The notes beneath the pieces were generated by a model, which did not search any database, had not been told where the DNA came from, and worked only from the letters and a program-made list of their open reading frames with translations. Below, one piece after another: positions 19,376 to 45,948 of a DNA stretch of 64,000 bases. How positions within the stretch are numbered: position 1 is the first letter of the stretch; each line of letters opens with the position of its first letter. This DNA comes from an uncultured delta proteobacterium (GTDB lineage: Bacteria > Desulfobacterota > BSN033 > UBA1163), in the NCBI GenBank assembly GCA_963827685.1, contig CAWHBU010000005.1, positions 224,001 to 288,000 of the forward strand, read 5' to 3'. Position numbers and translations under genes: made by a program.

Positions 19376-19408
19376 CGGGCCCTGAACCTAATATGGTACA
19401 GGGCGGGC
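19376..19408. repeat. 23-bp palindromic micro-element, copy 1, with CGGGC direct repeat
   Basis: CGGGC-CCTGAACCTAATATGGTACAGGG-CGGGC. Confidence 0.75.
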
Positions 19409-19453
19409 ATCTTAACTCTGACCTTTTAGCCATGTCTTTTTACTTTCACGTAA

Positions 19454-20566
19454 TTAGATGACATCGGTATCTCCCCAGTTGACATACCATTTCTCCGGAG
19501 AATTAAATATTTCTCTTTTCGAATGAAAATAGACCATAAATTGAAAAGTTTTTGGGCTCGGGAGAAATCCTCTTTTCCGAAGGATCCTATCATAAGGATG
19601 GCCTTGGGGGACCATGAAAGCCAAAAGATCAGTGCCTTTGTGTCGGCTGTGTTGAATTCCCCTTTCCGTTAACGCCGTAAGGGTTACTTGATCCAGTGCC
19701 AATAAATCGACAATGACGGCGCTATTAAATTTGAGGAGTTCAACCTTTCTCAAGACAATATATCCCATCATCTCTCCACTTTTTTTTGCTCGATAAATCG
19801 TATAGGTTCGCGTTGGGTGTTGAAGATATCTCCAGGTCAAATAATTCCGATTTCGGACCCCAATGATGGGGTAAAGTGACAATGCTTTTTGCCAGAAATG
19901 ATCGAACTGATCATCCAACGAACCCATTTCTTCTATCTCAATCTTCTCCACCCCATTTCTTCTCTTTAATCTGTAGCAAAGAGCATACAAGAACCTTACC
20001 ACCCCTCCAGCAAGAAGGCTCAGAAGTGGAAAGTGGAGGTACCGATTTATGATGCCGCTAAATCTTATTGGATAGACCAGGACGGGAAGCTTCACCACTT
20101 CCTTCCAGCCGATTTTTTTCAATCCATGAATCGTTTCCTGCCGTATAGGGAATGCAATCAAGAAACGTCCATTCTCTTTTCTCACCCGTTCGATTCCGTA
20201 TCGCCCCAGCGCCTCGAAGATGCCCCTTCTCCAATAATCGGGGTGAACCATCAAATCAAGCGAAAGGGTCCCCAGAATAGATTCTCCTTGGACGGAAAAC
20301 GACCGAGGGATATCTGCAAAGTGTCCGACGATCTTACTCTCATCCTCCACAACATAGATCCATCCCTGTCCATCAGGCCCTCCCAGGAATTCCCACCCCC
20401 AAAATCTTGGATCCAATTTGTCTTTTTCTTCTTCCCCGAAGACAACTCCTCTGAGGGATAAAATTCCTTCCATATCCATCTTATTTCCATCCCGAACTTT
20501 CCAATAACGCATTTCATCCATCATTCTGGCCGTTCTATTTTGAATAAACCATTTCAACTGTCTCAA
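19454..20566 (-). CDS. GNAT-family acyltransferase
   Basis: LMVHPDYWRRGIF acyl-CoA motif; YLTWRY; C-terminal GDTD. Confidence 0.85.
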   Translation of the reverse strand: MRQLKWFIQNRTARMMDEMRYWKVRDGNKMDMEGILSLRGVVFGEEEKDKLDPRFWGWEFLGGPDGQGWIYVVEDESKIVGHFADIPRSFSVQGESILGTLSLDLMVHPDYWRRGIFEALGRYGIERVRKENGRFLIAFPIRQETIHGLKKIGWKEVVKLPVLVYPIRFSGIINRYLHFPLLSLLAGGVVRFLYALCYRLKRRNGVEKIEIEEMGSLDDQFDHFWQKALSLYPIIGVRNRNYLTWRYLQHPTRTYTIYRAKKSGEMMGYIVLRKVELLKFNSAVIVDLLALDQVTLTALTERGIQHSRHKGTDLLAFMVPQGHPYDRILRKRGFLPSPKTFQFMVYFHSKREIFNSPEKWYVNWGDTDVI

Positions 20567-20596
20567 TGCATCTTTTCTTAATCTATCCTAAACAGA

Positions 20597-21883
20597 TCAT
20601 TCTTTCGCCTTCCTTTTATAAGGCCGGTAAGCCAAATAAAAGTTTATTATAAAAAGACAGAAAGCAACGATACCCACGATCATAAGAACCTGAATCAAAG
20701 TGTCGTGGAATAATATCATTAAACCAAGCTCAATCAAGGTGAAGCAGAACAGAGGATAAAGAAACCATCTCCTGGGAGTGGAGAGATGGTAGTAGAGTAA
20801 GATCAAGGTCAGGGAGAAGAGGGTCATATTGACAGAAAACATTCCTATCAAAGGCGCACATTCTAAGTAGACCTTCCCACTCAGTACCCTGACGATGGAC
20901 AAAGGGAAGAGAAGGGAGAATAAGATGCTCCCACCACACAGAAAAACAGCTATTCTAAGGCTCTTTCCTAAAGTCGAAGGTATTCCTTCTTCCCGTCCCT
21001 CTAACGAGGAAAGTTTAGGAAACATAACCGTGACGATGGGAATAGGAAGAACGAGAATAATTTTCCCTACCATCTGGGCAATGGAATAATAACCCGCCTC
21101 AAAGGGTGTGAAGAAGTGTTTGACTAAAATCAAATCAATATTGGTAAGAACCATAAAGCATAATAATACCAATCCTGCTGAAAAGGAATACCGATATACC
21201 TCCGAAAAACTGGATGGGAGGGAACGCTTTGCTATGACTCCCTGATCGGCTACCGTCTTTTCCTTAAGAAGGCTAATTCCTATAAGGAATAAAGACAGAA
21301 TCGTTGTAACGATATAAGAAACGGCAATCGCGCCCATGGCTCCCCATAGCCCAAAACCCAAAAGGACGAAGAGGATCCCTAAGGCAAATTTAAGACCACT
21401 ATTAATGATGAGATTGAGGGTCAACAAACCAAATTTTTGTAATCCTTGAAGGCCTCCCCATAAAATAGGGATAACCATGGAGAAAGCCAGACTCAATCCA
21501 AAAAGGATGACCAATCCCCGGGAGGAAATTTGAAGGAAAGAAGAGATGGGGGAACTCGCAAAAATGATCACTAAAAAAAATGACAAGGCGATGATGGACA
21601 TCAATAAGAGAAAATGCCGCAGCAGTTCAATGGCTTGACGATATTGGTTTTGAACTTTGAAGGATGAAAAGAACCTCGTGACGGTGGTTTGAACCGTACC
21701 CGCGGGAACAGAGATTATCGCGAAGAGTGCGACGAGGGTGTTGAGGTGCCCGTAATCGGTGGGCGGGAGGATTCTTATCATGAACAAATGGTAAAGGAGG
21801 TTGAAAAGGTTGAATAACCCCATACCGATAAACACCAATCCGGTTTGCTTGATAAACTCATCCTTAAATCCGAACCATTTCAA
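20597..21883 (-). CDS. Wzx-type oligosaccharide flippase
   Basis: Polytopic membrane protein with NIDLILVKHF, AGYYS, VMFPK. Confidence 0.88.
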   Translation of the reverse strand: MKWFGFKDEFIKQTGLVFIGMGLFNLFNLLYHLFMIRILPPTDYGHLNTLVALFAIISVPAGTVQTTVTRFFSSFKVQNQYRQAIELLRHFLLLMSIIALSFFLVIIFASSPISSFLQISSRGLVILFGLSLAFSMVIPILWGGLQGLQKFGLLTLNLIINSGLKFALGILFVLLGFGLWGAMGAIAVSYIVTTILSLFLIGISLLKEKTVADQGVIAKRSLPSSFSEVYRYSFSAGLVLLCFMVLTNIDLILVKHFFTPFEAGYYSIAQMVGKIILVLPIPIVTVMFPKLSSLEGREEGIPSTLGKSLRIAVFLCGGSILFSLLFPLSIVRVLSGKVYLECAPLIGMFSVNMTLFSLTLILLYYHLSTPRRWFLYPLFCFTLIELGLMILFHDTLIQVLMIVGIVAFCLFIINFYLAYRPYKRKAKE

Positions 21884-23406
21884 TAAATCACCTCGTAAAT
21901 AATGGATGTTCGATCCGCTCTTATAAAAATTTCTTTTAGATCCGTTGATTGAATTGATTCAATGAAACCCGGGTTCATTTCGTGAGTATGTCTATTGACG
22001 AGAATATATCGAACCCCTCTTGTTTTTGCATCATGGATAATCTCGTTATAGGATTTGCCAGGATTCCCCGGTGTAGGAATCCCCTCAGGTAACATTGTGA
22101 ATTCTCGGTCAGCATAGAACGCTTCAATGGGACTATTACTCATAATGATAGCGTCCTGAGGGGTATTCTGTTTTAACCACAGTCCAACCTTTTTCTGATC
22201 TGCACGACTTCTTCTCTCCGGTGTCAGACTCTGTGGCAACTGGCTTAAAATCACAACCATGATGAATAAGGCAGTCACCTTTTCTGGATTCGATATCCTG
22301 ATTTTTTCCAAATATCTCTTAATTTCTAAAATACCTTGACCAGCCCAAAAGAGAGAAAGGGGAATGACCGGGACTGAAAAACGGATCGTGGAAGGGACAA
22401 AGGTGGACAAAGAAAACAGATGGAAGAGAACCAAGGAGGCTAAAAACAACTCAAAGGCAATAACCCTCCCCCTAACCCTTATTAGCCCAAAAAATAGAAA
22501 TAGCCACAACGAAAAGTGGTAAGCCCTCAAATAGTGATAGATAACAAAAGGGAGAAAGTGAACAACTTTTTGGGTGATCTTTTGGATTCTGAAATTCTTT
22601 TTTACGGGTTTATCTGGCTCAATACCCTTTGAAGGATTAACCTCCTCAACACCCTTTTTAAGAAATTGAGCTTGTGTTCCCAGCCCTTTCTTACTAATCA
22701 ACCATTGACCTGTTTCGCGATGGATATAGAGGACGTAGGGGATGACAAAGATAAAAACGCTCAAAACCAGAACTCCAATGGGGACGAATCTCTTAAGCCA
22801 CTTCTTTTTAAGACCGCCATCCACGATGATCCAAATTAGATAAACCAGAACATAACCCATCCCCTCTGGCCTTGTAAGATAGGCCAGACCAAGAAAACAT
22901 CCTGATAACGCTATCCTCCATACCTTCTCTTTCTTTAGCCCTATCCAGAAAAAATAAACCGATAGGATCAGAAACCCCCAATAAGTGGCTTCGGTGAGGA
23001 GCATTCCCGAATAAGTTACAAGGTAGGGATGGAAAGCATAGAGAAGCGCTGAAAAAATGGCTTCTTTTTTGCCAATTGCCTCTTTGACTAAATAAAATAA
23101 TGGAATGATGGTAAGAGTCCCGAAAAAAAGGGAGATTAATCTTCCTGTTATTTCAACATGCGTGGTATCCGGAGAAAACAAGAAGATCAAGAAAGGGAAA
23201 AAAGGATGGCCAGGCGATGACAATCCTTTTATAAAATGGCCCTTTAAAAAATCCCTCGCCATGAAACCATAGGCAGCGCTGTCATTGGCAATCCCCTGTG
23301 CCATCAGGACCGCATAAAGCCTTAATCCAAACGAAATCCCGACGAGGAGCAAAACTACCTGCTTTTCATCAAGGGTTTTGAAGAAATAAATAAACTTATT
23401 GATCAT
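21880..23406 (-). CDS. ArnT/PMT-like (GT-C) membrane glycosyltransferase
   Basis: NDSAAY, HPFFP, LLTE, LAYLTRPEG, soluble C-terminal domain. Confidence 0.85.
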   Translation of the reverse strand: MINKFIYFFKTLDEKQVVLLLVGISFGLRLYAVLMAQGIANDSAAYGFMARDFLKGHFIKGLSSPGHPFFPFLIFLFSPDTTHVEITGRLISLFFGTLTIIPLFYLVKEAIGKKEAIFSALLYAFHPYLVTYSGMLLTEATYWGFLILSVYFFWIGLKKEKVWRIALSGCFLGLAYLTRPEGMGYVLVYLIWIIVDGGLKKKWLKRFVPIGVLVLSVFIFVIPYVLYIHRETGQWLISKKGLGTQAQFLKKGVEEVNPSKGIEPDKPVKKNFRIQKITQKVVHFLPFVIYHYLRAYHFSLWLFLFFGLIRVRGRVIAFELFLASLVLFHLFSLSTFVPSTIRFSVPVIPLSLFWAGQGILEIKRYLEKIRISNPEKVTALFIMVVILSQLPQSLTPERRSRADQKKVGLWLKQNTPQDAIIMSNSPIEAFYADREFTMLPEGIPTPGNPGKSYNEIIHDAKTRGVRYILVNRHTHEMNPGFIESIQSTDLKEIFIRADRTSIIYEVIY

Positions 23407-23442
23407 TGATTTGAATTGAAGGGAGTTAAGATATTTCTATTT

Positions 23443-24609
23443 CTATATTCCATTGAATGAGCCAGAATGTCTCATTAAGATTTGGACGATCTTCTGGCTT
23501 GCCTTCCCATCTCCAAATATCTTACTTCCCTTTAGATACCTCCTTCGTCCCTCCGTATGACTTACCTCTTTCATAATTCTTTCCACACTTGTCCCTACCA
23601 ATACGTTCCAACCACTTTTGATTGTCTCCACCCATTCCGTCTCTTCCCTCAACGTCAAACAGGGAACCCCGAACCAATAGGCCTCTTTTTGAACCCCCCC
23701 TGAATCAGTCAGGATGGCCTTAGCATTCTTTCCCAGTTTGAGCATATCGAGATAAGAGACTGGTTCAATAAATTTAATATTTTTGAATTCGGAGGAGAGA
23801 TGATAGACCTTTATCATCTTCTTCGTCCTCGGATGAAGCGGAAGGACGACAGGGGTTTTTCCCCCAATCTCATTCAAGGCTCTACAGATAGATTTTAGTT
23901 TCTTAGGATCGTCAGTATTTTCAGCGCGGTGGAGAGTAGCCAGATAATAGTTCGGAGTTCGGAGTGAAGAGTTCGGAGTGAAGAGTCCAAGATCACTAAG
24001 GATGGACGACTTCTTTTGGGCCAATTTTGAATAATAGAGAATCGAATCGTACATCACATCGCCTACATTTTTAACTATTCTTCTACTTTCCTCTTTTATC
24101 CCTTCCTTCAGTAAATTCCGGACCGCCTGGTCAGTGGGACAGAATAGAAAAGTTGAAAGATGGTCCGTCAGGAGGCGATTAATTTCCTCGGGCATGTCCT
24201 GGTTATAGCTTCTCAAACCTGCCTCCACATGAGCGACAGGAATTTTTAGTTTTGCCGCCGCCAAAGCACCAGCCAATGTCGAATTCGTATCACCATAAAC
24301 GATGACCCTTTCAGGTCTTTCCTTTTCAAGGACCATCTCAATACGTTCAAGCATCTTACCGGTCTGCTTGGCATGAGAACCGGAACCCACCCCCAGATGG
24401 TAATCCGGCTTGGGAAGCTTAAGTTCTTCAAAAAAGACTTTATCCATCATGTAGTCATAGTGCTGTCCGGTATGAACCAGTATTTCTTGAATCCGCCTCT
24501 TTTCGTAGAGTCGAGTCTGCGACCTTTCATTGATTTTTTGGATCGCACGACAGATTGCTGCGGCCTTAATAAATTGGGGCCTTGCGCCCACAATGGTCAC
24601 AATCTTCAT
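23443..24609 (-). CDS. wecB: Non-hydrolysing UDP-GlcNAc (or UDP-GlcNAc3NAcA) 2-epimerase
   Basis: VGARPQFIK, HTGQHYD, GDTNST, HVEAGLRS, TDSGGVQKEA. Confidence 0.95.
   Translation of the reverse strand: MKIVTIVGARPQFIKAAAICRAIQKINERSQTRLYEKRRIQEILVHTGQHYDYMMDKVFFEELKLPKPDYHLGVGSGSHAKQTGKMLERIEMVLEKERPERVIVYGDTNSTLAGALAAAKLKIPVAHVEAGLRSYNQDMPEEINRLLTDHLSTFLFCPTDQAVRNLLKEGIKEESRRIVKNVGDVMYDSILYYSKLAQKKSSILSDLGLFTPNSSLRTPNYYLATLHRAENTDDPKKLKSICRALNEIGGKTPVVLPLHPRTKKMIKVYHLSSEFKNIKFIEPVSYLDMLKLGKNAKAILTDSGGVQKEAYWFGVPCLTLREETEWVETIKSGWNVLVGTSVERIMKEVSHTEGRRRYLKGSKIFGDGKASQKIVQILMRHSGSFNGI
23949..23990. repeat. Heptamer tandem array inside wecB
   Basis: AGTTCGG AGTTCGG AGTGAAG AGTTCGG AGTGAAG AGTCCAA. 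Confidence 0.8.
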
Positions 24610-24774
24610 CCTTTGACTCCAAGAGGGATAAACTGTTCTTTTATGGATGTTTCATCAATCGAATAAACTGTTTGGCATCGACAAAACGACCTCATCAGAA
24701 GCAACCCGTCCAGCTTTTTCGATCTCCACGTTATGCCTCCTCGTGGAATAGGCTCAAAAAGGTCCATGCTACAC

Positions 24775-25692
24775 TCAAAATATCCCTACCTCATCACGAT
24801 TACTTGCTCTTAGAGAGTCTTTGGCGTGTTGGTAAACCAGGAAATATTTTTTCAATTTGTATTTTGTTTTTGACTTATTTTTAACAAAGGGAAGTGAAAG
24901 GGTAAGCATTACTATTCTCCACCATGCTTTGAACACCTTCTCTCTATTGATCCGCTTCACCGTCTCTGGATAATAATGCTTTCTATAGAAGATATGCTCA
25001 GCACGAATTTTCTTGTCCCATACTCCAAGTGGCGTTGTGTTTCTTTCGCTCTGGCCACCCGAATGAATAATGACTGCTTCGTCTACATAACCGATTTCGT
25101 AGCCATGCTTCCTCACTCTTAGACAGATATCCTGATCCTCTCCATACAGAAAAAAATCTTCGTCGAACCCCCCGATTTTCTTTATCAGATCAGCACGGGC
25201 GACCATACTCGCACCGATAACGCATGCAATAGAGCCTGGGAGCCCCGAAAGTTCATCTTGGGTGTATTCTTGTCCCAAATATTGTTCGGATTTCGACCAC
25301 TGTAATGTTCCATCTGGGTCAATCAACCTGGTTCCTGCTAAACCTACGTGGGGATTTGATTCCATATAGGATAGTATTCCTCGTAAGGCCCCTCTCCTGA
25401 GTCTCGTATCCGGGTTAAGAAAAAAGATGTATTTTCCTCGGCATTGATGTAGAACTTGATTATTCGCGGCGGCAAATCCTCGATTTTTATCATTAGCAAA
25501 GAGGGACACCATGGGGAATACTTTTTGAAGATAAGCTACGCTGCCGTCGCTCGATCCGTTGTCCACGACAAAGATTTCCTTACGGCAATCTTCCTCCGCG
25601 AGGATCGACCGAATACAGATCCCGACTAAGTCTTCGGTATTGTACGACACAATTATAATTGAAACTTCGGGTTGTCCTGTTTCACCGATCAT
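24775..25692 (-). CDS. GT2 glycosyltransferase
   Basis: IIVSYN, VDNGSSD, LNPDT, DEDFFLYGED. Confidence 0.93.
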   Translation of the reverse strand: MIGETGQPEVSIIIVSYNTEDLVGICIRSILAEEDCRKEIFVVDNGSSDGSVAYLQKVFPMVSLFANDKNRGFAAANNQVLHQCRGKYIFFLNPDTRLRRGALRGILSYMESNPHVGLAGTRLIDPDGTLQWSKSEQYLGQEYTQDELSGLPGSIACVIGASMVARADLIKKIGGFDEDFFLYGEDQDICLRVRKHGYEIGYVDEAVIIHSGGQSERNTTPLGVWDKKIRAEHIFYRKHYYPETVKRINREKVFKAWWRIVMLTLSLPFVKNKSKTKYKLKKYFLVYQHAKDSLRASNRDEVGIF

Positions 25693-25727
25693 TCGTTAGC
25701 TATCCGGTTTGGGTGCAATATGGATGA

Positions 25728-26309
25728 TTAAGAAATTCCCAAAAACTCAACTTTATCCTTTATTTTACGATAAGATTTCCCACAGGCCTTGCACGAACCT
25801 TTCCCGGATCGGAAGGTTATCTCCTCAGCACATTGGCAGACCCATCCCTTCACTTTTCCTGGATTTCCATAAACCAAAGAATAATCCGGAACATCCCTGG
25901 TCACCACAGAACCCGCCCCAATAAAAGCATACTGACCAATCGTATTTCCACAGACAATTGTCACATTGGCACCCATGGTGGCTCCTCTTTTCACCAAAGT
26001 ATTCCGAAATTCTTTCTTTCTCGATATGAAACTCCTGGGGTTAAAGACATTCGTAAAGACCATAGAGGGCCCGCAGAAAACATGATCCTCCAAGATCACT
26101 CCATCATAGATAGAGACATTGTTTTGAACCTTTATATTATTTCCTAAGACCGCACCTGAACCGATAAAGACATTCTGACCGATGACACAGTTCTCCCCAA
26201 TCCTCGCACCCGACATGATGTGGGTGAAGTGCCAGATCTTGGTCCGCTCCCCAATCTCTACGGGTCCATCCACGACAGCCGTGGGGTGAATAAAGTATTC
26301 CTTTTCCAT
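25728..26309 (-). CDS. WbpD/WlbB-type N-acetyltransferase
   Basis: [27 protein letters not shown]-terminal CQC...CKAC. Confidence 0.9.
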
Positions 26310-26313
26310 CTCC

Positions 26314-27345
26314 CTATTCTCCTTCGAGGCGGATTGGAAACCCCTTCTTCTTCAAAGACTCCTGGGCAGCCATAAGAATTTTTACCACTCTAAGTCCGTC
26401 CCGGCCTCCGGTTTTAGGTTCTTTCCGCGATTCGATGCTTTGAATAAAATGTTCTGCTTCAGCCCTGAGCGGTTCAGCCATCTTGATACTCGGAATGGTA
26501 ATATCTCCAAACCTCAGGCTGAGGTATTCCCCATAGGTATCATAGGAGAGATTCTTTACCCCTTTATCATAGATCTTCAGTTTCTCGGAAGCCTCCATAT
26601 CGTCGAAGACCACCATCTTTTTTGAGCCCACGATGGTGATCTTTCTTAACTTATGAGGATCCAGCCAACTCAAATGAATATTTGCCATCTTGCCATCAGA
26701 GAATTGGAGTCCAAGAAACACCACATCCTCAATCCCCTTCTGGATATAACTCTCTCCATGAGCGGTCACCGCAACCGGTCCTTCCTCGAGGAGGTATAGG
26801 ATGACCGATAGATCATGGGGGGCAAAAGAAAGGAGGGCATTTTCATCCTGACGGATCACACCGAGATTGACCCGCTGGGTATAAATATAATAAATTCTTC
26901 CCAATTCACCGGACCCGACCATTTCCTTCAGCCGGTCGACCACAGGATGATAGATCAAAAGATGACCCACCATGAGAATTCTTTTTCTCTTCTTTGCGAT
27001 CCCTAACATCTCCTCGGCATCTTTTGTATTCAAGGCCATCGGTTTCTCTACCAACACGTCTTTATCGGCTAACATGGTCTCTTTCGAAATGGAATAATGG
27101 GAGAGAGCTGAAGAAGCCACCACGACTCCTCTCACCTCTGGATCTTGAAGAATGGGTTTCAAATCCTCAACCATCTTCGTTTGGGGATAGGTCTTCTGTA
27201 ATGAGAGCAATTTCGAAGGATCCTGATCACAGACATATTTCAATCGAACATTGGGAATTTCGGAAAACACCCTGATGTGGTTTTTCCCCCATGCCCCAGC
27301 TCCCACGACAGCAACGCTGATCATAGAATCTCCTCCAGCAACCAA
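26314..27345 (-). CDS. Gfo/Idh/MocA oxidoreductase (possible nucleotide-sugar 3-dehydrogenase)
   Basis: VGAGAWG, LVEKPM, SFAPHD. Confidence 0.9.
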
Positions 27346-27395
27346 TTCATAATTTGGCCGGCAAGTGTTCCTCGACCCCGCCCCCCCAAAGCCTT

Positions 27396-28064: not shown

Positions 28065-28215
28065 TCTTTCTATTCTGTTCTATTGCCCAAGTCTCTTGAG
28101 GCAAAGTTCAAACTTTCAGGATAACATGACTCGAATCCTTTTCAAAAGCAGAATGCCGTTTCGATTCAGATAAGAAGATCGACCAGCCCTCCACTCCTTT
28201 CTTTTTATGATCCGG

Positions 28216-29205: not shown

Positions 29206-29222
29206 ATTACCTGCAAACCAAT

Positions 29223-35574: not shown

Positions 35575-35649
35575 ACTTATAGCGAATTACTCGAATGATA
35601 GCGAATGAATCGAAAATACTGATACAAGTCCATTTGATTCTCTTACATT

Positions 35650-35750
35650 GTCATTGCGAGCGATAGCGAAGCAATCTCGTATCTGAGGAGATTGCTTCGT
35701 CGCTTCGCCCTGTACACCATGCGGTGCAGGGCTTCGCTCCTCGCAACGAC
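35650..35750. repeat. REP-like inverted pair (GTCATTGCGAG...CTCGCAACGAC) carrying micro-element copy 2 at 35709-35731
   Basis: GTCATTGCGAG/CTCGCAACGAC and CGAAGCAATCTC/GAGATTGCTTCG arms; insert flanked by CTTCGC repeats. Confidence 0.85.
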
Positions 35751-35806
35751 CCTTTATTTAATCCGTTTGCATTCGGTTTATTCGCTCTCATTCGCCCAAT
35801 TCGTTC

Positions 35807-37707: not shown

Positions 37708-37719
37708 CTTAGCATGCCT

Positions 37720-37805
37720 ATTGCGGATTGCAGAATGCGGATTGCGGAATTTGAAAACTAAATTCCATTCTTTTATTCCGCATTCCGAAATCCGAAATCC
37801 GCATT
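37720..37805. repeat. Inverted heptamer arrays
   Basis: (ATTGCGG)-like units at 37720-37754 facing (ATTCCGC/AATCCGA)-like units at 37775-37805. Confidence 0.85.
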
Positions 37806-37809
37806 ATAT

Positions 37810-38808
37810 TTAGCCCCAGTATTCCTTCTTATGCTTTCTGTAGAACTCGATCGTTCTTCGAAGCCCTTCCTCCAAATCGGTCTTCGGCTCCCAGCCCACC
37901 ATGCGTTTGATCTTGGAGATGTTGGTATAATAATCTCCCGGTTCGACTTCCTTTCTCTCTTGAGTAAACTCGGTGAAGGCCGCTCTGCCAGTTCCGGCAA
38001 TCTTTACAATCCTTTTTGCCAGGTCGATGAAGCTGATGGGAATGCCGGTCCCCACATTAAATACTTCTCCATAAGCCTGATCACAGGTGGCTGTTTGCAA
38101 AAAACAATCAACCAGGTCATCCACATAGAGAAAATCTCTCAAAATCCGGCCGTCTCCAAAGACGGGAATGACTTCGCTATCGATAGCCTTTCGGATAAAC
38201 CAATTGAGCACGCCATATTCATCGTGGGCCATCTGGTGTCGGGGTCCATAGGTGTTCGTAATTCGAAGACAGGTTCCCGGAATTTTGTGAACGTCGTGAT
38301 AGACAAGAACCATCTTCTCCGCCGATAAATTGGTCACCGCGTAGATTCCCTTGGGATTTGTGGGATGATCTTCCCCTACCGGCAAGGTCACACTGGAACC
38401 ATACTCCCCCCGCGTCCCTGCAAAAATGATCCTTACCCCTGGATTATTTTTTCGGCAGGATTCAAGGAGGACCAATGTCCCCCGACAGTTGATGTCCAGA
38501 TCCTGAATCGGATTCCGGATACTGTCCACATGATTCACCTGCCCAGCGAGATGAAAAATGATCTCCTGTCCTTTCACTAAATAATCCATGGAATGACCAT
38601 CCCTCACATCGGTGAAATTGATATGGACGCGATCGGCGATCTCTTTCACATTAAAGAGGTTTCCTCCCAGACGGGGCATCATGTTATCCACAATCGTCAC
38701 CTTTGCCCCCAATGCAATCAGTCGGGCCGACAGATTGGATCCAATGAAACCCAAACCACCTGTCACCAATATTTTTTTCCCTCTGAAAACCTCTTGATCA
38801 GGAGTCAT
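37810..38808 (-). CDS. NAD-dependent nucleotide-sugar epimerase/dehydratase
   Basis: TGGLGFIG, TNTYGPR, RDFLYVDD. Confidence 0.92.
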   Translation of the reverse strand: MTPDQEVFRGKKILVTGGLGFIGSNLSARLIALGAKVTIVDNMMPRLGGNLFNVKEIADRVHINFTDVRDGHSMDYLVKGQEIIFHLAGQVNHVDSIRNPIQDLDINCRGTLVLLESCRKNNPGVRIIFAGTRGEYGSSVTLPVGEDHPTNPKGIYAVTNLSAEKMVLVYHDVHKIPGTCLRITNTYGPRHQMAHDEYGVLNWFIRKAIDSEVIPVFGDGRILRDFLYVDDLVDCFLQTATCDQAYGEVFNVGTGIPISFIDLAKRIVKIAGTGRAAFTEFTQERKEVEPGDYYTNISKIKRMVGWEPKTDLEEGLRRTIEFYRKHKKEYWG

Positions 38809-38833
38809 TCTCTTTCTCCTCTTTTGAGATCGT

Positions 38834-38990
38834 CAACCCTTCGGCTTCCCCACCTAAAGTCTGGGGCTTCTCCCTCGGCCTGAGCTAGGATCGAAGGCTC
38901 GGGGTTGACCCTGCACTTCGATAGACTCAGTGTCCTGAGCTTGCCGAAGGAAGCGACACTTCTCTGCCCCTCCTTCAGAAGATGGGCTTG
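38834..38990. repeat. Composite nested REP-like palindromes
   Basis: GTCAACCC...GGGTTGAC arms enclosing/adjoining CCTGAGCTAGGATCGAAGG, CTTCGATAGACTCAG and CCTGAGCTTGCCGAAGG units. Confidence 0.7.
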
Positions 38991-39750
38991 GTGTTGTCGA
39001 ATGGGTCAACTCCCATAGTTTGGCATATTTGATAAAAACATAGAACATAGTCGAGACGATGATGATGAACCCTGGCAACCCATCCCTAAATCCCGACTTA
39101 AAAAGATACTCTTTGATAAATCGAAATGGAGGATGAAAAAGAAGCTTAACAAGGCTAAACTTCTCTCCATTCTTAAAGAGATCAGCTGCAGCAATCTTGG
39201 AATACTTATCTATCGTCTGGATCTGATCTGAAATGTCTCCGTAGGTATAATGATGATACTGATTCTTTAATACACCCACCTCTCCATCCACGACCAACTT
39301 GGCATGAAGTCCCCCCTCCCATTTCCCTTTGTCCCTTCGATAAAGGCGAATCTCACCATCTGGATACCATCCTCCGTATCGAATCCACTTTCCCAAGTAA
39401 TAAGTACGCCGATAAACAAAATATCCATCTAAATCCTTTGCCCTTCCATTCAACTCCGCCCGAATCTCTTCGGCCAACTCCGGAGGAATTTCTTCATCGG
39501 CGTCCACAAACATGATCCAATCCCGAGTGGTGAGATCAGCGGCATACTGATATTGATCCCGATGCCCCGTCCACTTCCTCTGAAATGTTTTGTCGGTATA
39601 TTGTCTGCAGATTTCGTAGGTCCCATCCTGGCTGAAGGAGTCAACGATCACCAGCTCCTCAACCCAGGAGAGGCTTTTCAGACATTGTTCAATCGTCCTG
39701 CGATTGTTGGTGGTGAGGACATAGGCAGAAACCGGAACCTTTTCGATCAT
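38854..39750 (-). CDS. GT2 LPS core beta-1,4-glucosyltransferase-like (KdtX/LgtF type)
   Basis: VDSFSQDGT, VDADE, GGWYPD, GFRDG, KYAKLWE; tail after that is repeat-derived. Confidence 0.9.
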   Translation of the reverse strand: MIEKVPVSAYVLTTNNRRTIEQCLKSLSWVEELVIVDSFSQDGTYEICRQYTDKTFQRKWTGHRDQYQYAADLTTRDWIMFVDADEEIPPELAEEIRAELNGRAKDLDGYFVYRRTYYLGKWIRYGGWYPDGEIRLYRRDKGKWEGGLHAKLVVDGEVGVLKNQYHHYTYGDISDQIQTIDKYSKIAAADLFKNGEKFSLVKLLFHPPFRFIKEYLFKSGFRDGLPGFIIIVSTMFYVFIKYAKLWELTHSTTPSPSSEGGAEKCRFLRQAQDTESIEVQGQPRAFDPSSGRGRSPRL

Positions 39751-40796
39751 TTTCTCTTACGCCTCAATTGTTGATCAACGACTTCTTCGACGTCATCCAC
39801 TGTGATGAGTTCCATGCATCGATGATCTGTTGGACAAATTCTCTTCCAACAGGGACTGCAAGGGACATCCTTTCTAACCACCACATGGCCCTCCCCCCAT
39901 GGACCCGTGGTGAAAGGGGGTGTTGATCCAAAGAGAGCGACGACAGGAGTGCCGACAGCAGTGGCCACATGCATCGTCCCGGTATCGTTCGTCACAAGGA
40001 GACTACATCGTTCCAGAAGGGCGGCCAGTTGGAGTAAACCGGTCTTTCCGGTCAAATCTATTCCCTTTGTTCCCAAATGGTGTAGAATCTCATGGACGAT
40101 GGGACGCTCATCCTCCTTGCCAAAGAGGAGGATCCTGGTTTGCCATTGCTCCGCAAGCCTCTTTCCCAATTCCCCGAATCGATCCGGATGCCAACATTTG
40201 GCTAAACCATAAGTGGCACCAGGATTCATTCCGATGAGGGGCTTCCCTTCCGGGATCCCCATGTCTTTCAACACTCGATCTGCCCACCTTCGATCTTCCT
40301 CCCTGAGAAATATTTGAGGAGAAGGAAGCCTTTCTATCTTCCCTAATGGCTCGATCAGTTTCCGGTAATAATGAACCCGGTGGCCATGGAGGATTTCTTT
40401 GGTTCGACGAATTCGGTGGGTAAGAAAGAGTGAACGTCCCTCAGCTTGATAACCAATTCGGATTGGAATGCGCGCCATGTAAATATGAAAAGCAGAGCGG
40501 AAAGACCGTGGAAGAATGACCGCCAGATCAAAATTCCTCTCCTTTAAAGATTCGCTGAGATTTAAATCTTCCCAAATAGATCCAATCCCCCCCTTCTTTT
40601 GGAAAGGGATGATCTCATCCACGTAGGGAAATGTTTTCCATAAATCGACGAGATAGCTTGGAATCAAAATAGCTAAGTGGGATTTGGGAAAGAGAGCCTT
40701 TAATTGTTGAACTGTTGGATAACTGAGGACAGTATCTCCTACCCAGTTTACGCCTCTTACCAATATACGATTGACTTGGCTAAAATCGCGTTTCAA
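39747..40796 (-). CDS. waaF: Heptosyltransferase II (GT9)
   Basis: NWVGD, LPRSFRSA, PGATYGLAKCW, TNDTGTMH. Confidence 0.92.
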   Translation of the reverse strand: MKRDFSQVNRILVRGVNWVGDTVLSYPTVQQLKALFPKSHLAILIPSYLVDLWKTFPYVDEIIPFQKKGGIGSIWEDLNLSESLKERNFDLAVILPRSFRSAFHIYMARIPIRIGYQAEGRSLFLTHRIRRTKEILHGHRVHYYRKLIEPLGKIERLPSPQIFLREEDRRWADRVLKDMGIPEGKPLIGMNPGATYGLAKCWHPDRFGELGKRLAEQWQTRILLFGKEDERPIVHEILHHLGTKGIDLTGKTGLLQLAALLERCSLLVTNDTGTMHVATAVGTPVVALFGSTPPFTTGPWGEGHVVVRKDVPCSPCWKRICPTDHRCMELITVDDVEEVVDQQLRRKRK

Positions 40797-40894
40797 GAGA
40801 CCTGCTCCTTCCTAAAGAGTTAAGGTTATTATATCAACCTCTTCAAGTCAAACTCGGAATCCGCAGATAAATTCCCCATCCCGTTAGGAAAGCT

Positions 40895-41650
40895 CTATGT
40901 CTCACACGGATGAGTTCGCTTGGCATATATATATCCACCATTGCGGTTCATTTTGACTTCAAAACCTAATTCTTTAAGTCTAAGAGGAATATCGATGGAA
41001 AATTCTGGCGGAACACTATGCGTCTCCATAGCAATTCCCATGATTTTAGCAGCAGTTTCAGAACTGATATTTCTTAGGATATCATGTTCAGCTCCTTCGC
41101 AATCCAACTTTAAAAAATCGATTCGAGGTAGATCCTCTTGCCTGATGATATCCTCAACCGAGATAGTGGGAATACGTCCCGTCTTGATATTCGTAATCCT
41201 TCTTTTATATAAGGAATGATCGGCTGAGGAGCCACCTTGATAGGTATAAATATCTTGATATCCACTTATACCAGAAACCGCCATTTTAAAGATAGACATA
41301 TTCTCCAGGTGGTTTAGCTCCACATTCTTCTTGAGCATTTGATAATTATTTGACTCCGGCTCAAAAGCGAGCACCTTGTAGGCACTTCTTGCAACGATGA
41401 TAGAGAAAGATCCGATGTGAGCTCCTACATCGACAACAATTGAGTCTTTTGTGATTGGAATAAAATCTTTTGTATAGTTTTTCTTAACAAAATTTGATTT
41501 TACAATTCTCAAATCATCCGTATTAGGGCGCAACTTAATTCTTAAACCGCTTCGATGTATCAACTCAATTTCTTTGCGTAGAAATCCATAACGTCCTGCA
41601 TAAAACATATACCAATTCTTAAACGTAGCAATATTCTTTATGAATGACAT
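40895..41650 (-). CDS. FkbM-family methyltransferase
   Basis: VDVGAHIG, FEP, LKLDCEGAE. Confidence 0.92.
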   Translation of the reverse strand: MSFIKNIATFKNWYMFYAGRYGFLRKEIELIHRSGLRIKLRPNTDDLRIVKSNFVKKNYTKDFIPITKDSIVVDVGAHIGSFSIIVARSAYKVLAFEPESNNYQMLKKNVELNHLENMSIFKMAVSGISGYQDIYTYQGGSSADHSLYKRRITNIKTGRIPTISVEDIIRQEDLPRIDFLKLDCEGAEHDILRNISSETAAKIMGIAMETHSVPPEFSIDIPLRLKELGFEVKMNRNGGYIYAKRTHPCET

Positions 41651-42750
41651 TCAAGGTCTCTCTTCTTATCTCTGACAGCTTCTGGCCTCGCTAAGATGCC
41701 TAAAATCTCTTTCGTTGCCTTAAAAACTTCATCGGCTGAGATAGCTTTTATACAGACAAGTCTTTTGCAGGAATATTCATGACACGGATTGCACCCCACT
41801 TCTTTTCTTACTTTGATGTGATTTCCAAAAGGTTCATTTTCTATCGGGTCTGTCGGTCCATAAATGACGACAGCAGGGATTCCCATGAGGGAAGCAATAT
41901 GCATTGGTCCTGTATCTCCTCCAATATAAAGATCACAGTTTCTATATACCTCCCCCAACTGTGTCAAGGATTCCGTTTTTGGCGCCAGGAGAGATGGCTC
42001 CTTCATCTGTTTTCGAACACCTTCTACCCACTCCAGTTCCTCATCTCCCCAAGTGAAAAGAACGGAGGCATTGAGTTCTCGGACCAATCGATTCGCCAAT
42101 TGAGCATATTGATCAGGCATCCATCGCTTGAAGAAAGCTTTGGGGCTCGTTCCCGGATGGATGGCAATCAAAGGTCTGTTGAGGGACGCTGATGAAGCCT
42201 TAAAAAATGACGCCACATATTTCCGATCCTCCGGGGGGATATGAAGGCTATATTTAAGCTTTTTCAGCTCCAATCCCATCCCTCTTAGTAGCGCAAGATT
42301 TCTTTCAAATCGGCTGGTCCTTTCTTTTAGAAGCTTCACTTTTACATTCGAAAACAAGAAATTCCCCTCCTTGGTCGACCTTCGATCATATCCAATCCTC
42401 TTAGGAGAACCTGAAAGAAATGAGAGAACACCGCTTTTAAGGATCCCATGAAAATCAAGAACCACATCAAACTTTCGCCTTCGAAGATTTTTGACAAATC
42501 CCCGCATTTCCCCGATCGTCCCCCATATCCCCCTTAATGACTTTATTCCTTTGGTCCACCTTTTCCTTGGAAATAAGATCACCTCATCAACCTCTGGTTG
42601 ACTTTCCAGGAAGGCTCGAGAGGGTTCTTCAACAATCCAGGTGATTGAGGAGGAAGGAGTGTGCTCTTTTAAGGCTTTTACTGCGGGCAGTGTTCGGATA
42701 ACATCCCCCACTGCACTCAGCCTCAAAACCAAAATTCTTTGGTATTCCAT
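41638..42750 (-). CDS. GT9 heptosyltransferase (WaaC-like)
   Basis: LRLSAVGDV, HPGTS, GGDTGPMH. Confidence 0.9.
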   Translation of the reverse strand: MEYQRILVLRLSAVGDVIRTLPAVKALKEHTPSSSITWIVEEPSRAFLESQPEVDEVILFPRKRWTKGIKSLRGIWGTIGEMRGFVKNLRRRKFDVVLDFHGILKSGVLSFLSGSPKRIGYDRRSTKEGNFLFSNVKVKLLKERTSRFERNLALLRGMGLELKKLKYSLHIPPEDRKYVASFFKASSASLNRPLIAIHPGTSPKAFFKRWMPDQYAQLANRLVRELNASVLFTWGDEELEWVEGVRKQMKEPSLLAPKTESLTQLGEVYRNCDLYIGGDTGPMHIASLMGIPAVVIYGPTDPIENEPFGNHIKVRKEVGCNPCHEYSCKRLVCIKAISADEVFKATKEILGILARPEAVRDKKRDLECHS

Positions 42751-42757
42751 TGTTGAA

Positions 42758-42786
42758 ACATTACCCTATTATTACCCAATTTTCAA
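42758..42786 (-). promoter_or_regulatory. Putative sigma70 promoter for the LPS locus (leaderless geometry)
   Basis: TTGAAA-17 nt-TAATGT ending 7 nt before the ATG at 42750; no SD. Confidence 0.5.
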
Positions 42787-42889
42787 CAGCAAATACAAGA
42801 AGATAACAAATAGCAATATCGTCTTTTCTGGAATTTTACCAATAAAAGCAATATACTACTCTCAAATCATTCTCGGCCTTTGGTGTCGA

Positions 42890-43927
42890 ATGAATACTCA
42901 AATCCTGTCTTTCCGTTTCAGCCCTAAGAGAAAGGTGAGAATTGGAATAGCGGTATTTGCTACAGGGTTATTAGGTACTGGCTTATTCATCACCAATGAT
43001 ACCTTAATGGCCCTCCATGAAAATGAGACTAAAAAGATACCTTCCTACGACGGTTTCTCTGAAATCAATCCTTCAAAAAATCACTTCATTCTTGTCGGAG
43101 ATACACAGAGTACAAGCCGCTGGGAATTCTGGCGGGAAAAGAATGATATAGAACGAAAGTTAATCATTGATGAAATAGCCAAACACGATCCAGCCTTTGT
43201 TATCCACCTTGGTGATCTTACTGCTCGGGGAAGTTTAGAGAAACACTGGCAGAAATTTGACGATATGCACAGAGAATTTCCCAAGAAGAAGATTCCTTAT
43301 TTCCCAATCCTGGGAAATCATGAGTTTTATGGCAGCGACAAGAAAGCATTGCAGAACTATTTTGAGCGTTTTCCCCATCTTCATCAAAGGCGATGGTATA
43401 ACTTCACCTGGAATAATGTCGCAATGGTCACGGTTGATTCCAATTTCTCCGCCCTAACCAAAGAACAAATCGAGGACCAGTCTCAGTGGTATTTGAACGA
43501 GCTTGAAAAGTTCGAAAAGAACACGAAAATTAATTTTATCATTGTCTGCTGCCACGAGCCACCTTTTACCAACAGCCGGGTAGTCAGTCCAAACGAGAAA
43601 GTCAAAGTTTATTTTGCTGATCCTTTTCTTCGATTCCAAAAGACTCGCTTATTCTTCAGCGGCCACAGTCATTCTTATGAGCGTTTTCAAATGGGCGACA
43701 AGTACTTCATTGTCTCTGGGGGAGGGGGTGGACCGAGGCACAAGGTTATTATCGATCCCCGAAAGCGACGTTACCAAGACCTCTTTTCTGGCCCCGAACT
43801 TCGCTTTTTCCACTTCTGCGAAATAGAAAGCGGTAACGACACCCTTCTCTTCAAAGTCCTGCGCCTCGAATCTGATGACACATTCACAGTAGTTGACCCG
43901 TTAGTAATCCCAAAAATCAGAAGATAA
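42890..43927 (+). CDS. Calcineurin-like metallophosphoesterase
   Basis: VGDTQ, HLGDL, LGNHE, SGHSHSYER; start moved to 42890 to avoid the opposite-strand overlap. Confidence 0.9.
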   Translation: MNTQILSFRFSPKRKVRIGIAVFATGLLGTGLFITNDTLMALHENETKKIPSYDGFSEINPSKNHFILVGDTQSTSRWEFWREKNDIERKLIIDEIAKHDPAFVIHLGDLTARGSLEKHWQKFDDMHREFPKKKIPYFPILGNHEFYGSDKKALQNYFERFPHLHQRRWYNFTWNNVAMVTVDSNFSALTKEQIEDQSQWYLNELEKFEKNTKINFIIVCCHEPPFTNSRVVSPNEKVKVYFADPFLRFQKTRLFFSGHSHSYERFQMGDKYFIVSGGGGGPRHKVIIDPRKRRYQDLFSGPELRFFHFCEIESGNDTLLFKVLRLESDDTFTVVDPLVIPKIRR

Positions 43928-43932
43928 GAAAA

Positions 43933-44337
43933 CTATCCGGTGAGGCAAACCAAGAATTTTTCAGGAAGGCTCTTTGTTTTACCATTTGAATCGACGCAGA
44001 TGTGTTGGGTCTCCCCCTCTGCAATCACGTTCTCCTCTTGATCTTTACGAAGAATCTGATACCCAAAGGTGATCAACCGCTTATTTGCTCCCTTCAAGCG
44101 AGTTCGCACAATGACTGTTTCATCATACCGAGCAGAACTCCGATACCGGCAATGGACGTCGACGACGACAAGCTTATAGCCCAATGCTTCCAAATCAACA
44201 TAGCGGAATCCCCTTTTTCGACAGAACTCAGACCGTCCTACTTCAAACCAGACAAGGTAGTTCGCATAATAAGCCACTCCCATCTGGTCCGTTTCTGCAT
44301 ACCTAACTCGAATATCAACATCCACCAGGTCTTTCAT
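43933..44337 (-). CDS. YbgC/FadM-family acyl-CoA thioesterase
   Basis: RVRYAETDQMGVAYYANYLVWFEVGR. Confidence 0.95.
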   Translation of the reverse strand: MKDLVDVDIRVRYAETDQMGVAYYANYLVWFEVGRSEFCRKRGFRYVDLEALGYKLVVVDVHCRYRSSARYDETVIVRTRLKGANKRLITFGYQILRKDQEENVIAEGETQHICVDSNGKTKSLPEKFLVCLTG

Positions 44338-44403
44338 CCAAGCTCCCTAATCCATAACGTGACCGTGTCCGTCCTCCGTGTCCGTAACTTAGTGTAACAT
44401 CTA

Positions 44404-44550
44404 AAATCCAAATTTCAATTTCCAAATCCCAAATAAACTACAAGATCCAATTACCAAAATTCCAAAACTTTTAATTTTCCATTTCTTTTGGACATTGAGG
44501 ATTTAGAACATTGGTGCTTGTTTGCGATTTGATCCTTGGGATTTAGAATT
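44404..44550. repeat. Imperfect inverted heptamer-rich element, copy A
   Basis: AAATCCC/AAATTCC-rich left arm, TTGGGATTT/TTGGTGCTT-rich right arm. Confidence 0.75.
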
Positions 44551-44558
44551 TCTGTCCC

Positions 44559-45428
44559 TTACAGGGCTCTTAAATACTCAGGTCGGAGCAAATCTGGATC
44601 CTTCCTCCGGAGGACTTCTCGAATTCGCTTAAGGGCTTCTTCTTTTTCCTCTGGCATTTGAATTCGAAGAGGAAGATAGTTAGAGGCGTGATTGGAAGCA
44701 AAGAAACAATGGGTGAATTGGCAGTGGGTAATCATCATTTCCAGTTCTTTGATCAGACCGAAAGGAGTAGGTAAGACCAATTTTCCTGTTTCGATTTCCT
44801 TCTCAATGGGTGTTCCGGGAACGATCATCAAAGAAAGTGCGCCGACGTAGTCCGGATCCATCTGTGAAAGGACCTTTCCGGTCTCCACAGCATGCGCTTG
44901 ACTGCCTTCCACGCCACCGATGCCCAAAATCACAGTCACCGAGAGAAGAATTCCTGATTCCTTCACCCTTTTCCCGGCACGGATCAATTGATCCACGGTG
45001 GCATTCTTCTTAATGCGTTTCAATACTTCCGGATCTCCGGACTCCAAACCCAGATAGAGTATTCCCAAACCCAGGTCTTTTAGGGCTTTTAGTTCCTCCA
45101 CATCTTTCCGAAGGATATCCTTTGCATTGGCGTAGATGCCCACCCTTTCGAGCCCCTTCAATTTCGCTTTCAGATAGGATAGGATCTGAAGCAGTCCCTT
45201 TTGAGGGATGCTCAGGGCATCCCCATCTGCCAAGAATACTCTCCGAATTTTATACGGACTTACCTCATCGATATCCTCTTTGATCTCTTCGAAACTTTTT
45301 ATCCGGAAGCGCTTCCCTTGATAAGCACCGCAAAAAGTACATCGATTGTAAGAGCAACCCACCGTGACCTGAAGGATCAAGCTGTCCGCTTCGCTGGGAG
45401 GTCGGAAGATCATCCCCTCATACTTCAT
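44559..45428 (-). CDS. Radical SAM protein
   Basis: RPPSEA, CSYNRCTFC (CxxxCxxC), FLADGDAL, SNHASNY. Confidence 0.93.
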   Translation of the reverse strand: MKYEGMIFRPPSEADSLILQVTVGCSYNRCTFCGAYQGKRFRIKSFEEIKEDIDEVSPYKIRRVFLADGDALSIPQKGLLQILSYLKAKLKGLERVGIYANAKDILRKDVEELKALKDLGLGILYLGLESGDPEVLKRIKKNATVDQLIRAGKRVKESGILLSVTVILGIGGVEGSQAHAVETGKVLSQMDPDYVGALSLMIVPGTPIEKEIETGKLVLPTPFGLIKELEMMITHCQFTHCFFASNHASNYLPLRIQMPEEKEEALKRIREVLRRKDPDLLRPEYLRAL

Positions 45429-45727
45429 TTCGAATGCTCCTTTCCCTTCGAAGGGGTATCGAATTGATAAATGATCTCTCCTGCCTTGACCATCCCCAGC
45501 TCCTTTCGAGCGATCTCTTCGATATACCGTTTATCACTCTGTAGCCGTTTTACCTCTTCCTTCAACTTTTGATTCTCCTCCTCCAACTTAAAATTCATCT
45601 CCTTGATCCGGGCCAGCTCCTTCTGGAGGCGGAAAAGGTGGAAGATCCCATTTTCTCCAAAGAAGGTGAGGGTTCCAAGAATCAAAAGCAAAATAAGAAT
45701 CAGGAAAAGAAGACGCTTCCTCTTCAT
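45425..45727 (-). CDS. ftsB: Septum formation initiator
   Basis: TM helix, FGENG, coiled coil, IEEIARKELGMVKAGE; start trimmed to MKRKRL. Confidence 0.9.
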   Translation of the reverse strand: MKRKRLLFLILILLLILGTLTFFGENGIFHLFRLQKELARIKEMNFKLEEENQKLKEEVKRLQSDKRYIEEIARKELGMVKAGEIIYQFDTPSKGKEHSK

Positions 45728-45774
45728 TTTCAGCGATTTCCCTAGTCCACCCTCCAACCAGCCCTGTTCAATGA

Positions 45775-45948
45775 ATTCATTCCAAATCCCAAATTCCAAA
45801 TCACAAATCCCAAACAAATTCCAAACAAAAATACCAAATTGCCAAAACGATTTTTATGCACTTTTGAACTTTGGACATTGGAACTTATTTGTTATTTGGT
45901 GCTTGCCCTGCACCATATTAGGTACAGGGCTTGGATTTGGTGCTTGAA
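45775..45948. repeat. Imperfect inverted heptamer-rich element, copy B, carrying micro-element copy 3 at 45906-45928
   Basis: CAAATCC/CAAATTC units, TTTGGTGCTT right arm; GCTTG-CCCTGCACCATATTAGGTACAGG-GCTTG. Confidence 0.8.

Follow-up and report, generated by a model that had tools for sequence, protein, structure and literature searches.

A family of 24-bp hairpins with target duplications in intergenic repeats of an uncultured delta proteobacterium and of other, notably Thermodesulfobacteriota-labelled, genomes

How small can a mobile piece of DNA be? Mobile DNA is normally thought to need either an enzyme gene of its own or at least 50-100 bp of recognisable ends. The question is raised by a stretch of 64,000 nucleotides from an uncultured delta proteobacterium (GenBank assembly GCA_963827685.1, contig CAWHBU010000005.1, positions 224,001 to 288,000), hereafter the window, in which the initial annotation had noticed three copies of a 23-bp palindrome, each between its own short direct repeats, and had suggested that these were ultra-short elements inserted by an enzyme acting in trans. 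Here we argue that the three sequences most likely represent a family of 24-bp imperfect palindromes that have been inserted into pre-existing intergenic repeats with duplication of 4-5 bp of the target, being mobilised in trans. These hairpins are among the smallest mobile DNA elements known. An element of 24 bp nonetheless duplicates its target, is found at defined points within other repeats and turns up in many lineages of uncultured anaerobes; within the literature searched, the only comparable report concerns the small dispersed repeats (SDRs) of Nostocaceae. The three copies are:

19380-19403, plus strand: copy 1, 24-bp hairpin CCCTGAACCTAATATGGTACAGGG (motif match and DNA fold)
35708-35731, no strand assigned: copy 2, 24-bp hairpin CCCTGTACACCATGCGGTGCAGGG (motif match and fold)
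45906-45929, minus strand: copy 3, 24-bp hairpin CCCTGCACCATATTAGGTACAGGG (motif match and fold)

All three strings are present where the initial annotation had placed them, and the motif CCCTG-N14-CAGGG, which they have in common, is matched 3 times in the window, as compared with a mean of 0.06 in 100 dinucleotide shuffles, none of which reached 3. Allowing up to 3 mismatches to CCCTGNACCNNNNNNGGTNCAGGG revealed no degenerate copies in the window beyond these three (3 matches versus 0.16 expected), and no other repeat families of note were found there. Copies 1 and 3 are built alike, with 9-bp arms, a 6-nt loop of A+T and a single arm position that does not pair; in copy 1, the loop reads TAATAT, and A stands opposite A at arm position 6. 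When copy 1 is read on the minus strand, it differs from copy 3 at 2 of the 24 positions, just as the initial annotation had described the latter (the inverse of the first copy with two differences); the two represent one subfamily in opposite orientations. Copy 2 has the same CCCTG/CAGGG feet and the same length, but its inner stem is different and its loop is 4 nt long. It agrees with copy 3 at 17 of 24 positions and differs at 7 (hand count), and its reverse complement is nearer to a 22-mer in L021, from which one substitution and a 2-nt indel separate it, than to copies 1 and 3 (here and below, L with a number denotes a locus from the genome scan described further on). Judged by its sequence, copy 2 is a member of a different subfamily from copies 1 and 3.

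On either strand, the three copies are predicted to fold at -8 to -10 kcal/mol, with z from -3.3 to -5.0 (for the DNA fold of copy 1, -8.5 kcal/mol and z -3.85). All three are intergenic; the genes on both sides run in the same direction, on the minus strand, and belong to a long cluster for cell-envelope polysaccharides. Specifically, copy 1 occupies the spacer between the stop of a GNAT-family open reading frame (ORF; 19454-20566, minus strand) and the start of a polysaccharide deacetylase ORF (18485-19324, minus strand), and copy 3 that between an FtsB-like ORF (45425-45817, minus strand) and the ORF 46023-46811 (minus strand). Neither Rfam families nor tRNA genes were found in the window.

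Each copy is abutted on both sides by a direct repeat and is nested in a larger repeat, and one of the larger repeats has a second, hairpin-free copy in the window:

19376-19379 and 19404-19407, no strand: target duplication CGGG of copy 1 (from the sequence; the same CGGG duplication is found in L017 and L023)
19340-19450, no strand: host repeat A of copy 1, dispersed, about 70-100 bp (match to L023 and alignment A3)
35703-35707 and 35732-35736, no strand: target duplication CTTCG of copy 2 (from the sequence; when the host hairpin folds, the additional CTTCG has no pairing partner)
35650-35750, no strand: host palindrome of copy 2, which forms a side branch in its right arm
45902-45905 and 45930-45933, no strand: target duplication CTTG of copy 3 (from the sequence; the paralogue in the window has a single CCTTG at this place)
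45776-45950, no strand: host repeat around copy 3, a foldback with a length of about 170 bp that consists of CCAAAT-type heptamers and their complement (repeat comparison)
44392-44565, no strand: second copy of this foldback repeat without the hairpin, a paralogous empty site (alignment A4)

The repeats that the initial annotation had reported, CGGGC (19376-19380/19404-19408), CTTCGC (35703-35708/35732-35737) and GCTTG (45901-45905/45929-45933), are real, but its partition into a 23-bp element with repeats of 5-6 bp becomes simpler when the core is taken as 24 bp, with CGGG, CTTCG or CTTG directly at its ends. That all three window copies have such a repeat is far beyond chance, because permutation of the flanks across the family (see below) gives repeats of at least 4 bp at only about 1.3 of 123 sites. 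Within the window, 45 hairpins have 9-bp arms with at most one mismatch and a loop of 4-8 nt, and a flanking repeat of at least 4 bp in the 24-bp register is found only at copies 1 and 3, as against 0.25 per window for the same combination in Markov controls; copy 2, with two arm mismatches in the 24-bp register, falls outside this list.

Excision of the element together with one repeat restores the host at 35.7 and 45.9 kb, as had been claimed from the start, and, beyond that claim, at 19.4 kb as well. At 35.7 kb, removal of the 24-mer and one CTTCG leaves a continuous hairpin of -24.0 kcal/mol with a 3-nt bulge, as compared with -23.0 kcal/mol and an 8-nt bulge upon removal of the 24-mer alone; no further copies of this palindrome were found in the window. 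Host repeat A of copy 1 is recognisable in L023, which matches positions 19364-19425 of the window with 87% identity over 62 bp, and its flanks are also common to L017. The foldback host of copy 3 recurs in L031, a Syntrophaceae bin, where the identity is 79% over 164 bp and an inverted match of the self type is found in addition, and in L045, with 95% over 59 bp. The preference for other repeats that the initial annotation had proposed is upheld, inasmuch as the three window copies, and likewise most of the copies with a duplication in other genomes, reside in palindromic, tandem or foldback hosts.

Tandem heptamer arrays are found in several intergenic regions of the window (23949-23986, 37720-37805, 44403-44467 and 45782-45839), some as inverted pairs, with the units AGTTCGG, ATTGCGG facing ATTCCGA, and CCAAATC. 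Similar arrays host hairpins in L004, L008 and L076, and the window arrays resemble the tandem heptamer repeats of filamentous cyanobacteria.

Is the hairpin a peculiarity of this genome? A collection with one genome per species (185,579 genomes, 596 Gb) was scanned with CCCTGNACCNNNNNNGGTNCAGGG, 16 bases of the query being fixed. At least 120 loci matched. Further copies, whose absence would have spoken against the initial annotation, do exist; the 120 loci listed and the three window copies make up the 123 sites used for the statistics, and the family counts given here are those among the matches listed. Among these, 12 assemblies contain 2-4 loci each, 34 loci altogether. Labels of Deltaproteobacteria, Thermodesulfobacteriota or Syntroph* type are carried by 41 of the 120 loci (hand count) and Patescibacteria-type labels by 14; further assemblies with multiple hits are labelled Nitrospiraceae and Brocadiaceae/Brocadiales. 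Since about 139 chance matches are expected over all 185,579 genomes, some of the listed loci are noise. In particular, the palindrome extends by at least 3 bp further at 32 of the 123 sites (mean G+C 0.56), and these perfect-arm sites look like ordinary terminators of actinomycetes and others, a different thing. The scan nevertheless reveals a family that has multiple copies in many genomes, has its centre in records with a Thermodesulfobacteriota label and tends to land in repeats of the palindromic or tandem type. When oriented by its loop, the subfamily that includes copies 1 and 3 most commonly has the form CCCTG-A-ACC-TAnnAT-GGT-A-CAGGG, with A opposite A, and the 24-mer of copy 3 is found unchanged in L031 and L045. 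By these sequence features, the family is characterised by the CCCTG/CAGGG feet, arms of about 9 bp, a loop of 4-6 nt and, in its commonest form, one mismatched arm position. Plasmid and phage collections gave no match in a blastn search with a single 36-base query (copy 1 with its flanks, E-value limit 10), so that, within the limits of this query, there is no sign of such a carrier. Stop-free frames spanning the hairpin proved to be an uninformative measure in the G+C-rich loci.

Because the hosts are themselves dispersed repeats, their hairpin-free paralogues can serve as empty sites. In L049, filled and empty copies of the host repeat of copy 1 lie about 90 nt apart, and when the empty one (L049:491, with a single CGGG) is aligned with L017, L023 and copy 1, the gap of 28 nt equals the 24-mer plus CGGG (alignment A3). 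The host palindrome of copy 2 is related to that of L041, L106 and L011, where the hairpin is found at the matching place and is surrounded by three CGAAG-type units, as against two units in the empty L079:94. Similarly, the host of L089 and L096 contains three CAGG units, and its empty copies in L017:311 and L045(-):278 contain two. The empty paralogue of copy 3 is in the window itself: the repeat at 44392-44565, with a mean column identity of 73% to the foldback around copy 3, has a single CCTTG where copy 3 reads CTTG, 24-mer, CTTG, and the gap between the two corresponds to the 24-mer and its duplication (A4). A lack of empty alleles, which would likewise have spoken against the initial annotation, is not what is seen: for four host repeats, there are paralogues from which the 24-mer and one repeat are missing. 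These empty sites are paralogous copies of the host repeats, not orthologous sites in close relatives. Taken together, the target duplications and the empty paralogues indicate that the three window copies are insertions accompanied by target duplication.

The duplication signal extends to the family as a whole. Abutting direct repeats of 3, 4 and 5 bp are present at 9, 13 and 6 of the 123 listed sites, respectively. Repeats of at least 4 bp (19 of 123) are expected at 1.3 sites when the right flanks are permuted, the maximum in 2000 permutations being 7, and repeats of exactly 3 bp (9 of 123) at a permuted mean of 1.8; duplication at chance frequency, which would have spoken against the initial annotation, is not what is seen. 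The tandem 5-mers in host repeats contaminated an offset control, which was not used as the null. Among the matches listed, a repeat of at least 3 bp accompanies 20 of the 39 sites mismatched at arm position 6/19 and 8 of the 84 sites with perfect arms; the signal is concentrated in the imperfect-stem subfamily to which copies 1 and 3 belong. Once L059, with its 11-bp extended palindrome, is excluded and similar flanks are collapsed, the 27 duplicated sites reduce to 16 flank contexts (8 with 3 bp, 6 with 4 bp and 2 with 5 bp; among the matches listed). The duplicated bases begin with C in 12 of these contexts and finish with G in 8, and the preceding base is G in 9. Across the family, the duplication measures 3-5 bp; the first base of the target is usually C, its last base is often G, and the base in front of it is often G as well.

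How could such a short sequence move? An element of this size is too small to encode anything and, therefore, must be moved in trans. We envisage that an enzyme encoded elsewhere in the genome would recognise the CCCTG/CAGGG feet, perhaps in the form of a folded hairpin, would cut the target with a stagger of 3-5 nt and would join the element ends to it, whereupon gap repair would yield the duplication; the element itself would be selfish, without a function for the host. Defined end recognition, a staggered cut and gap repair are suggested by the sharp 24-bp limits in unrelated contexts combined with a duplication of 3-5 bp.

Several observations weigh against this scenario or restrict its reach. 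The arms are only 6 nt apart and cannot pair as ordinary transposon ends do in duplex DNA; accordingly, the likelier substrate is a single strand folded into the hairpin, or else a short duplex that has been excised. No candidate for the mobilising enzyme was found among the 68 ORFs of the window, where the only transposase is of the IS256 family, and no transposase, HUH or reverse-transcriptase domains were found in 80 of the 138 ORFs (at least 90 codons) beside the listed loci, the loci that resemble chance palindromes having been left out of the scan. The filled and empty copies compared are all paralogous. At some sites, the target itself consists of tandem 4-5-mers, and simple counts of repeats come out too high; the case at these targets rests on the unit counts of filled versus empty copies. 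Duplications of at least 4 bp are found, among the matches listed and apart from L059 with its extended palindrome, only in records labelled 'delta' or Thermodesulfobacteriota; in other phyla they measure only 3 bp, and the reach across phyla is hence weaker, resting on the presence of the motif in multiple copies. The order of the listed loci is not known, and the conservation of the arms across them follows by construction, as the query fixed the arm sequence. Finally, in other genomes, the repeats that host copies 1 and 3 are already occupied by the hairpin, in the same orientation and, in the case of copy 3, by the very same 24-mer.

This last point brings up the alternative that the hairpin is not mobile on its own: having got into a small number of larger dispersed repeats in the distant past, it would have been spread by them or by their duplication and recombination. 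The flanks of copy 1 common to L023 and L017 and those of copy 3 common to L031 and L045 are as expected under such hitchhiking, as is the constant orientation of the hairpin relative to the host repeat within each group. The surrounding genes have no part in this similarity. No flanking-gene similarity between the loci and the window was found, tblastx detecting the repeat alone for L023, L031 and L045, and two further gene matches (L034 and L036) being unrelated; the shared flanks are, hence, dispersed repeats, not orthologous loci. Thus, some spread of the hairpin within its host repeat probably did take place, judging from these alignments, so that not every copy would be an independent event. 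As the full explanation, however, hitchhiking appears unlikely: the 16 distinct flank contexts with a duplication of at least 3 bp still need numerous insertion events; in L049, a filled copy of the host repeat has an empty one as its neighbour; and L003 and L041, with a Patescibacteria and a Deltaproteobacteria label, respectively, have the same host palindrome, in which one and the same point is occupied by a different variant of the hairpin in each. These three observations together require repeated independent insertion.

Insertion in trans could, in principle, proceed along a known route, if the hairpins were elements of the repetitive extragenic palindromic (REP) type, which are handled as single-stranded hairpins by a REP-associated tyrosine (HUH/Y1) transposase (RAYT) and are arranged in bacterial interspersed mosaic elements (BIMEs). 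The hairpins are 24-bp imperfect palindromes, intergenic and present in multiple copies; the hairpin arrays of L072 and L112 and the doublets with a second hairpin family in 7 loci (see below) resemble BIME clusters; and the recurrent mismatched arm position is typical of the substrates of such enzymes. The sequence next to the feet points in the opposite direction. A GTAG, GTGG or CGTC head within 8 nt of a foot is present at 5 of the 123 listed sites and at none of the 27 duplicated ones, with a chance frequency of about 0.11 per site; PMC3733652 and PMC2817692 define REP-type repeats by such heads. Furthermore, according to PMC2817692, larger target duplications, the main feature here, are not made by the IS200/IS605 family. 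No Y1 transposase, and no RAYT gene in particular, was found in the 68 window ORFs or in the 80 of 138 flank ORFs scanned (64 kb of source sequence and about 87 kb of loci). REP elements in the defined sense are ruled out by the absence of the head at duplicated sites and by the presence of target duplications; for a broader REP-like route of this kind, the odds seem poor.

A still less probable route dispenses with a dedicated enzyme altogether. A nascent strand would switch template, copy an existing hairpin and return a few bases upstream, microhomology with the G/C-rich feet giving rise to an apparent duplication. This would account for the variable length of the duplication, from 3 to 5 bp, and for the G before the core (at 75 of the 123 listed sites) and the C after it (at 84 of 123), which extend the palindrome by one pair; moreover, the targets are hairpin-forming or tandem sequences, at which replication may stall. 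No process of this kind that would carry a single short sequence to many sites in numerous genomes is known to us, and the same sharp 24-bp limits in unrelated contexts fit defined end recognition better, which makes template switching a very improbable source of the family. The notion that the hairpins serve the host as signals (for termination, mRNA stabilisation or protein binding), having been kept by selection and never inserted, is hardly tenable, since, stable as they are in spacers between co-directional genes of one long cluster, none of the three is followed by a T run on the transcribed minus strand, so that they are not intrinsic terminators, the window has no Rfam match, copies 1 and 3 are oppositely oriented, and the insertion is demonstrated by the target duplications and the empty paralogues.

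What enzyme, then, might carry out insertion in trans? The IS256-family element of the window was considered as the mobiliser and rejected, as its candidate inverted repeats (680-698 and 2079-2097) are unrelated to the hairpin. For the same reason, no autonomous parent was found in the window, this being its sole insertion sequence (IS); genes bracketed by distant CCCTGNACC arms were not searched for in the genomes. The 80 flank ORFs scanned encode ordinary housekeeping domains and, in L094, one small GIY-YIG protein. In the latter locus (L094:301-600, on a Kerfeldbacteria-labelled contig), a hairpin with perfect arms lies 12 nt upstream of the GIY-YIG nuclease gene, after which comes a tRNA gene; among the 120 listed loci, this arrangement occurs once. 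Going further than insertion in trans as such, one might speculate, with considerable doubt, that the hairpins are cross-phylum transposons of 24 bp, no smaller DNA being known to duplicate its target, and that they are moved by an enzyme outside the recognised IS families. Such a hairpin-oligonucleotide integrase would read only the CCCTG/CAGGG feet of the folded hairpin and would integrate it at C-N(1-3)-G via a 3-5-nt staggered cut. If so, the SDRs of cyanobacteria, which, to our knowledge, have been unexplained since 2008, might be accounted for by this class of enzyme as well.

Other hairpins with similar feet accompany the family. A second family of 24-bp hairpins has the same feet and a different stem (for instance, CCCTGCACTACGTGGAGTGCAGGG in L001); in L001, L004, L012, L047, L052, L076 and L120, its members lie 3 nt (CTG or CAG) from the first hairpin, inside heptamer arrays. 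Arrays of two or three different hairpins with spacers of 3 or 6 nt are present in L072 (355-424, with CCGAAG twice) and L112 (244-326), which agree in how their last two hairpins are ordered and in what sequence follows them. Such arrays and doublets would follow from re-insertion at a duplicated target, and they also recall BIME clusters. In the window, a perfect 25-bp palindrome, AGACCCTGAAATAAATTCAGGGTCT, is found at 53915-53939 and is followed by ggttcaggatgac (feet CCCTGAA/TTCAGGG in common, shorter, without a flanking duplication); it may represent another class of palindromic repeats or a terminator.

Should mobility of this kind be borne out, its implications would be of several sorts. 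A second, unrelated family in phyla other than that of the SDRs would make very small mobile repeats a general feature of bacterial genomes, and the sharpness of the motif would help to find the responsible enzyme by phylogenetic profiling. Hairpins of this type break up other repeats, seed hairpin arrays and may cause contig breaks in metagenome assemblies. Thirteen of the loci (L005, L008, L011, L019, L023, L025, L031, L099, L100, L106, L109, L112 and L116) are situated at a contig end, with a shortened flank.

Two further features of the window may be mentioned. The IS256-family transposase gene (767-2059, plus strand; region 137-2100) is adjacent to a GmhB-like ORF (137-517, minus strand) that matches only positions 74-179 of the 182 of its profile, and the insertion may have truncated this ORF. 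The ORFs 3559-4017 and 2507-3115, both on the minus strand, correspond to the N-terminal and to a later part of the same AglJ-type glycosyltransferase profile, so that the pair (2507-4017) may be a split gene.

Which of the known systems does the family resemble? The closest in kind appear to be the SDRs of Nostocaceae. Elhai et al. reportedly described them in 2008 as 'very small mobile repeated elements', and their size class is said to be 21-27 nt, as compared with the 24-bp core here. Like the present hairpins, SDRs are very small, non-coding and dispersed, and insert into other repeats. According to PMC4390886 and PMC5861425, SDR5 inserts precisely within HIP1, and, as stated in PMC5861425, SDRs were not seen outside Nostocaceae among the cyanobacteria examined. 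The host range is what sets the present family apart, centred as it is on Thermodesulfobacteriota-labelled genomes. The loci that share repeats with the window are labelled Thermodesulfobacteriota or Syntrophaceae, and none of these labels is that of a filamentous cyanobacterium; the nearest Atlas clusters of a 1013-aa TPR protein of the window are, on few members, labelled Thermodesulfobacteriota as well. By these clusters and by the 164-bp repeat in common with the Syntrophaceae bin, the window probably belongs to the Thermodesulfobacteriota. A cyanobacterial origin of the window was considered and discarded: HIP1 (GCGATCGC) has 1 match in it versus 0.44 expected, which is no excess.

REP elements and BIMEs, as portrayed in PMC3733652 and PMC2817692, are likewise imperfect palindromes, 20-40 bp long, intergenic, multi-copy and sometimes clustered; the present family differs from the REP/RAYT system in having no GTAG/GTGG/CGTC head at its duplicated sites and in making target duplications of 3-5 bp. 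With MITEs (miniature transposable elements bounded by inverted repeats), the hairpins have in common terminal inverted repeats (here, the 9-bp arms), a short target duplication, the lack of coding capacity and mobilisation in trans. MITEs are, however, usually 50-500 bp long, according to PMC10969869, and the initial annotation was right in placing the element far below that size, as 24 bp comprise no more than two 9-bp arms and a loop; nor is a parent IS with the same ends known. The hairpin repeats of organelles, in sponge mitochondria (PMC2800124) and in Volvox (PMC2670323), are also short, apparently selfish and intergenic, and the mechanism of their spread is likewise not known; these belong, however, to eukaryotic organelles and are unrelated in sequence. 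Within a limited literature search, no description of such an element in the phyla considered here was found. Hence, what is new here is this family, whereas very small mobile repeats as a kind are already known from the SDRs, where they still await an explanation.

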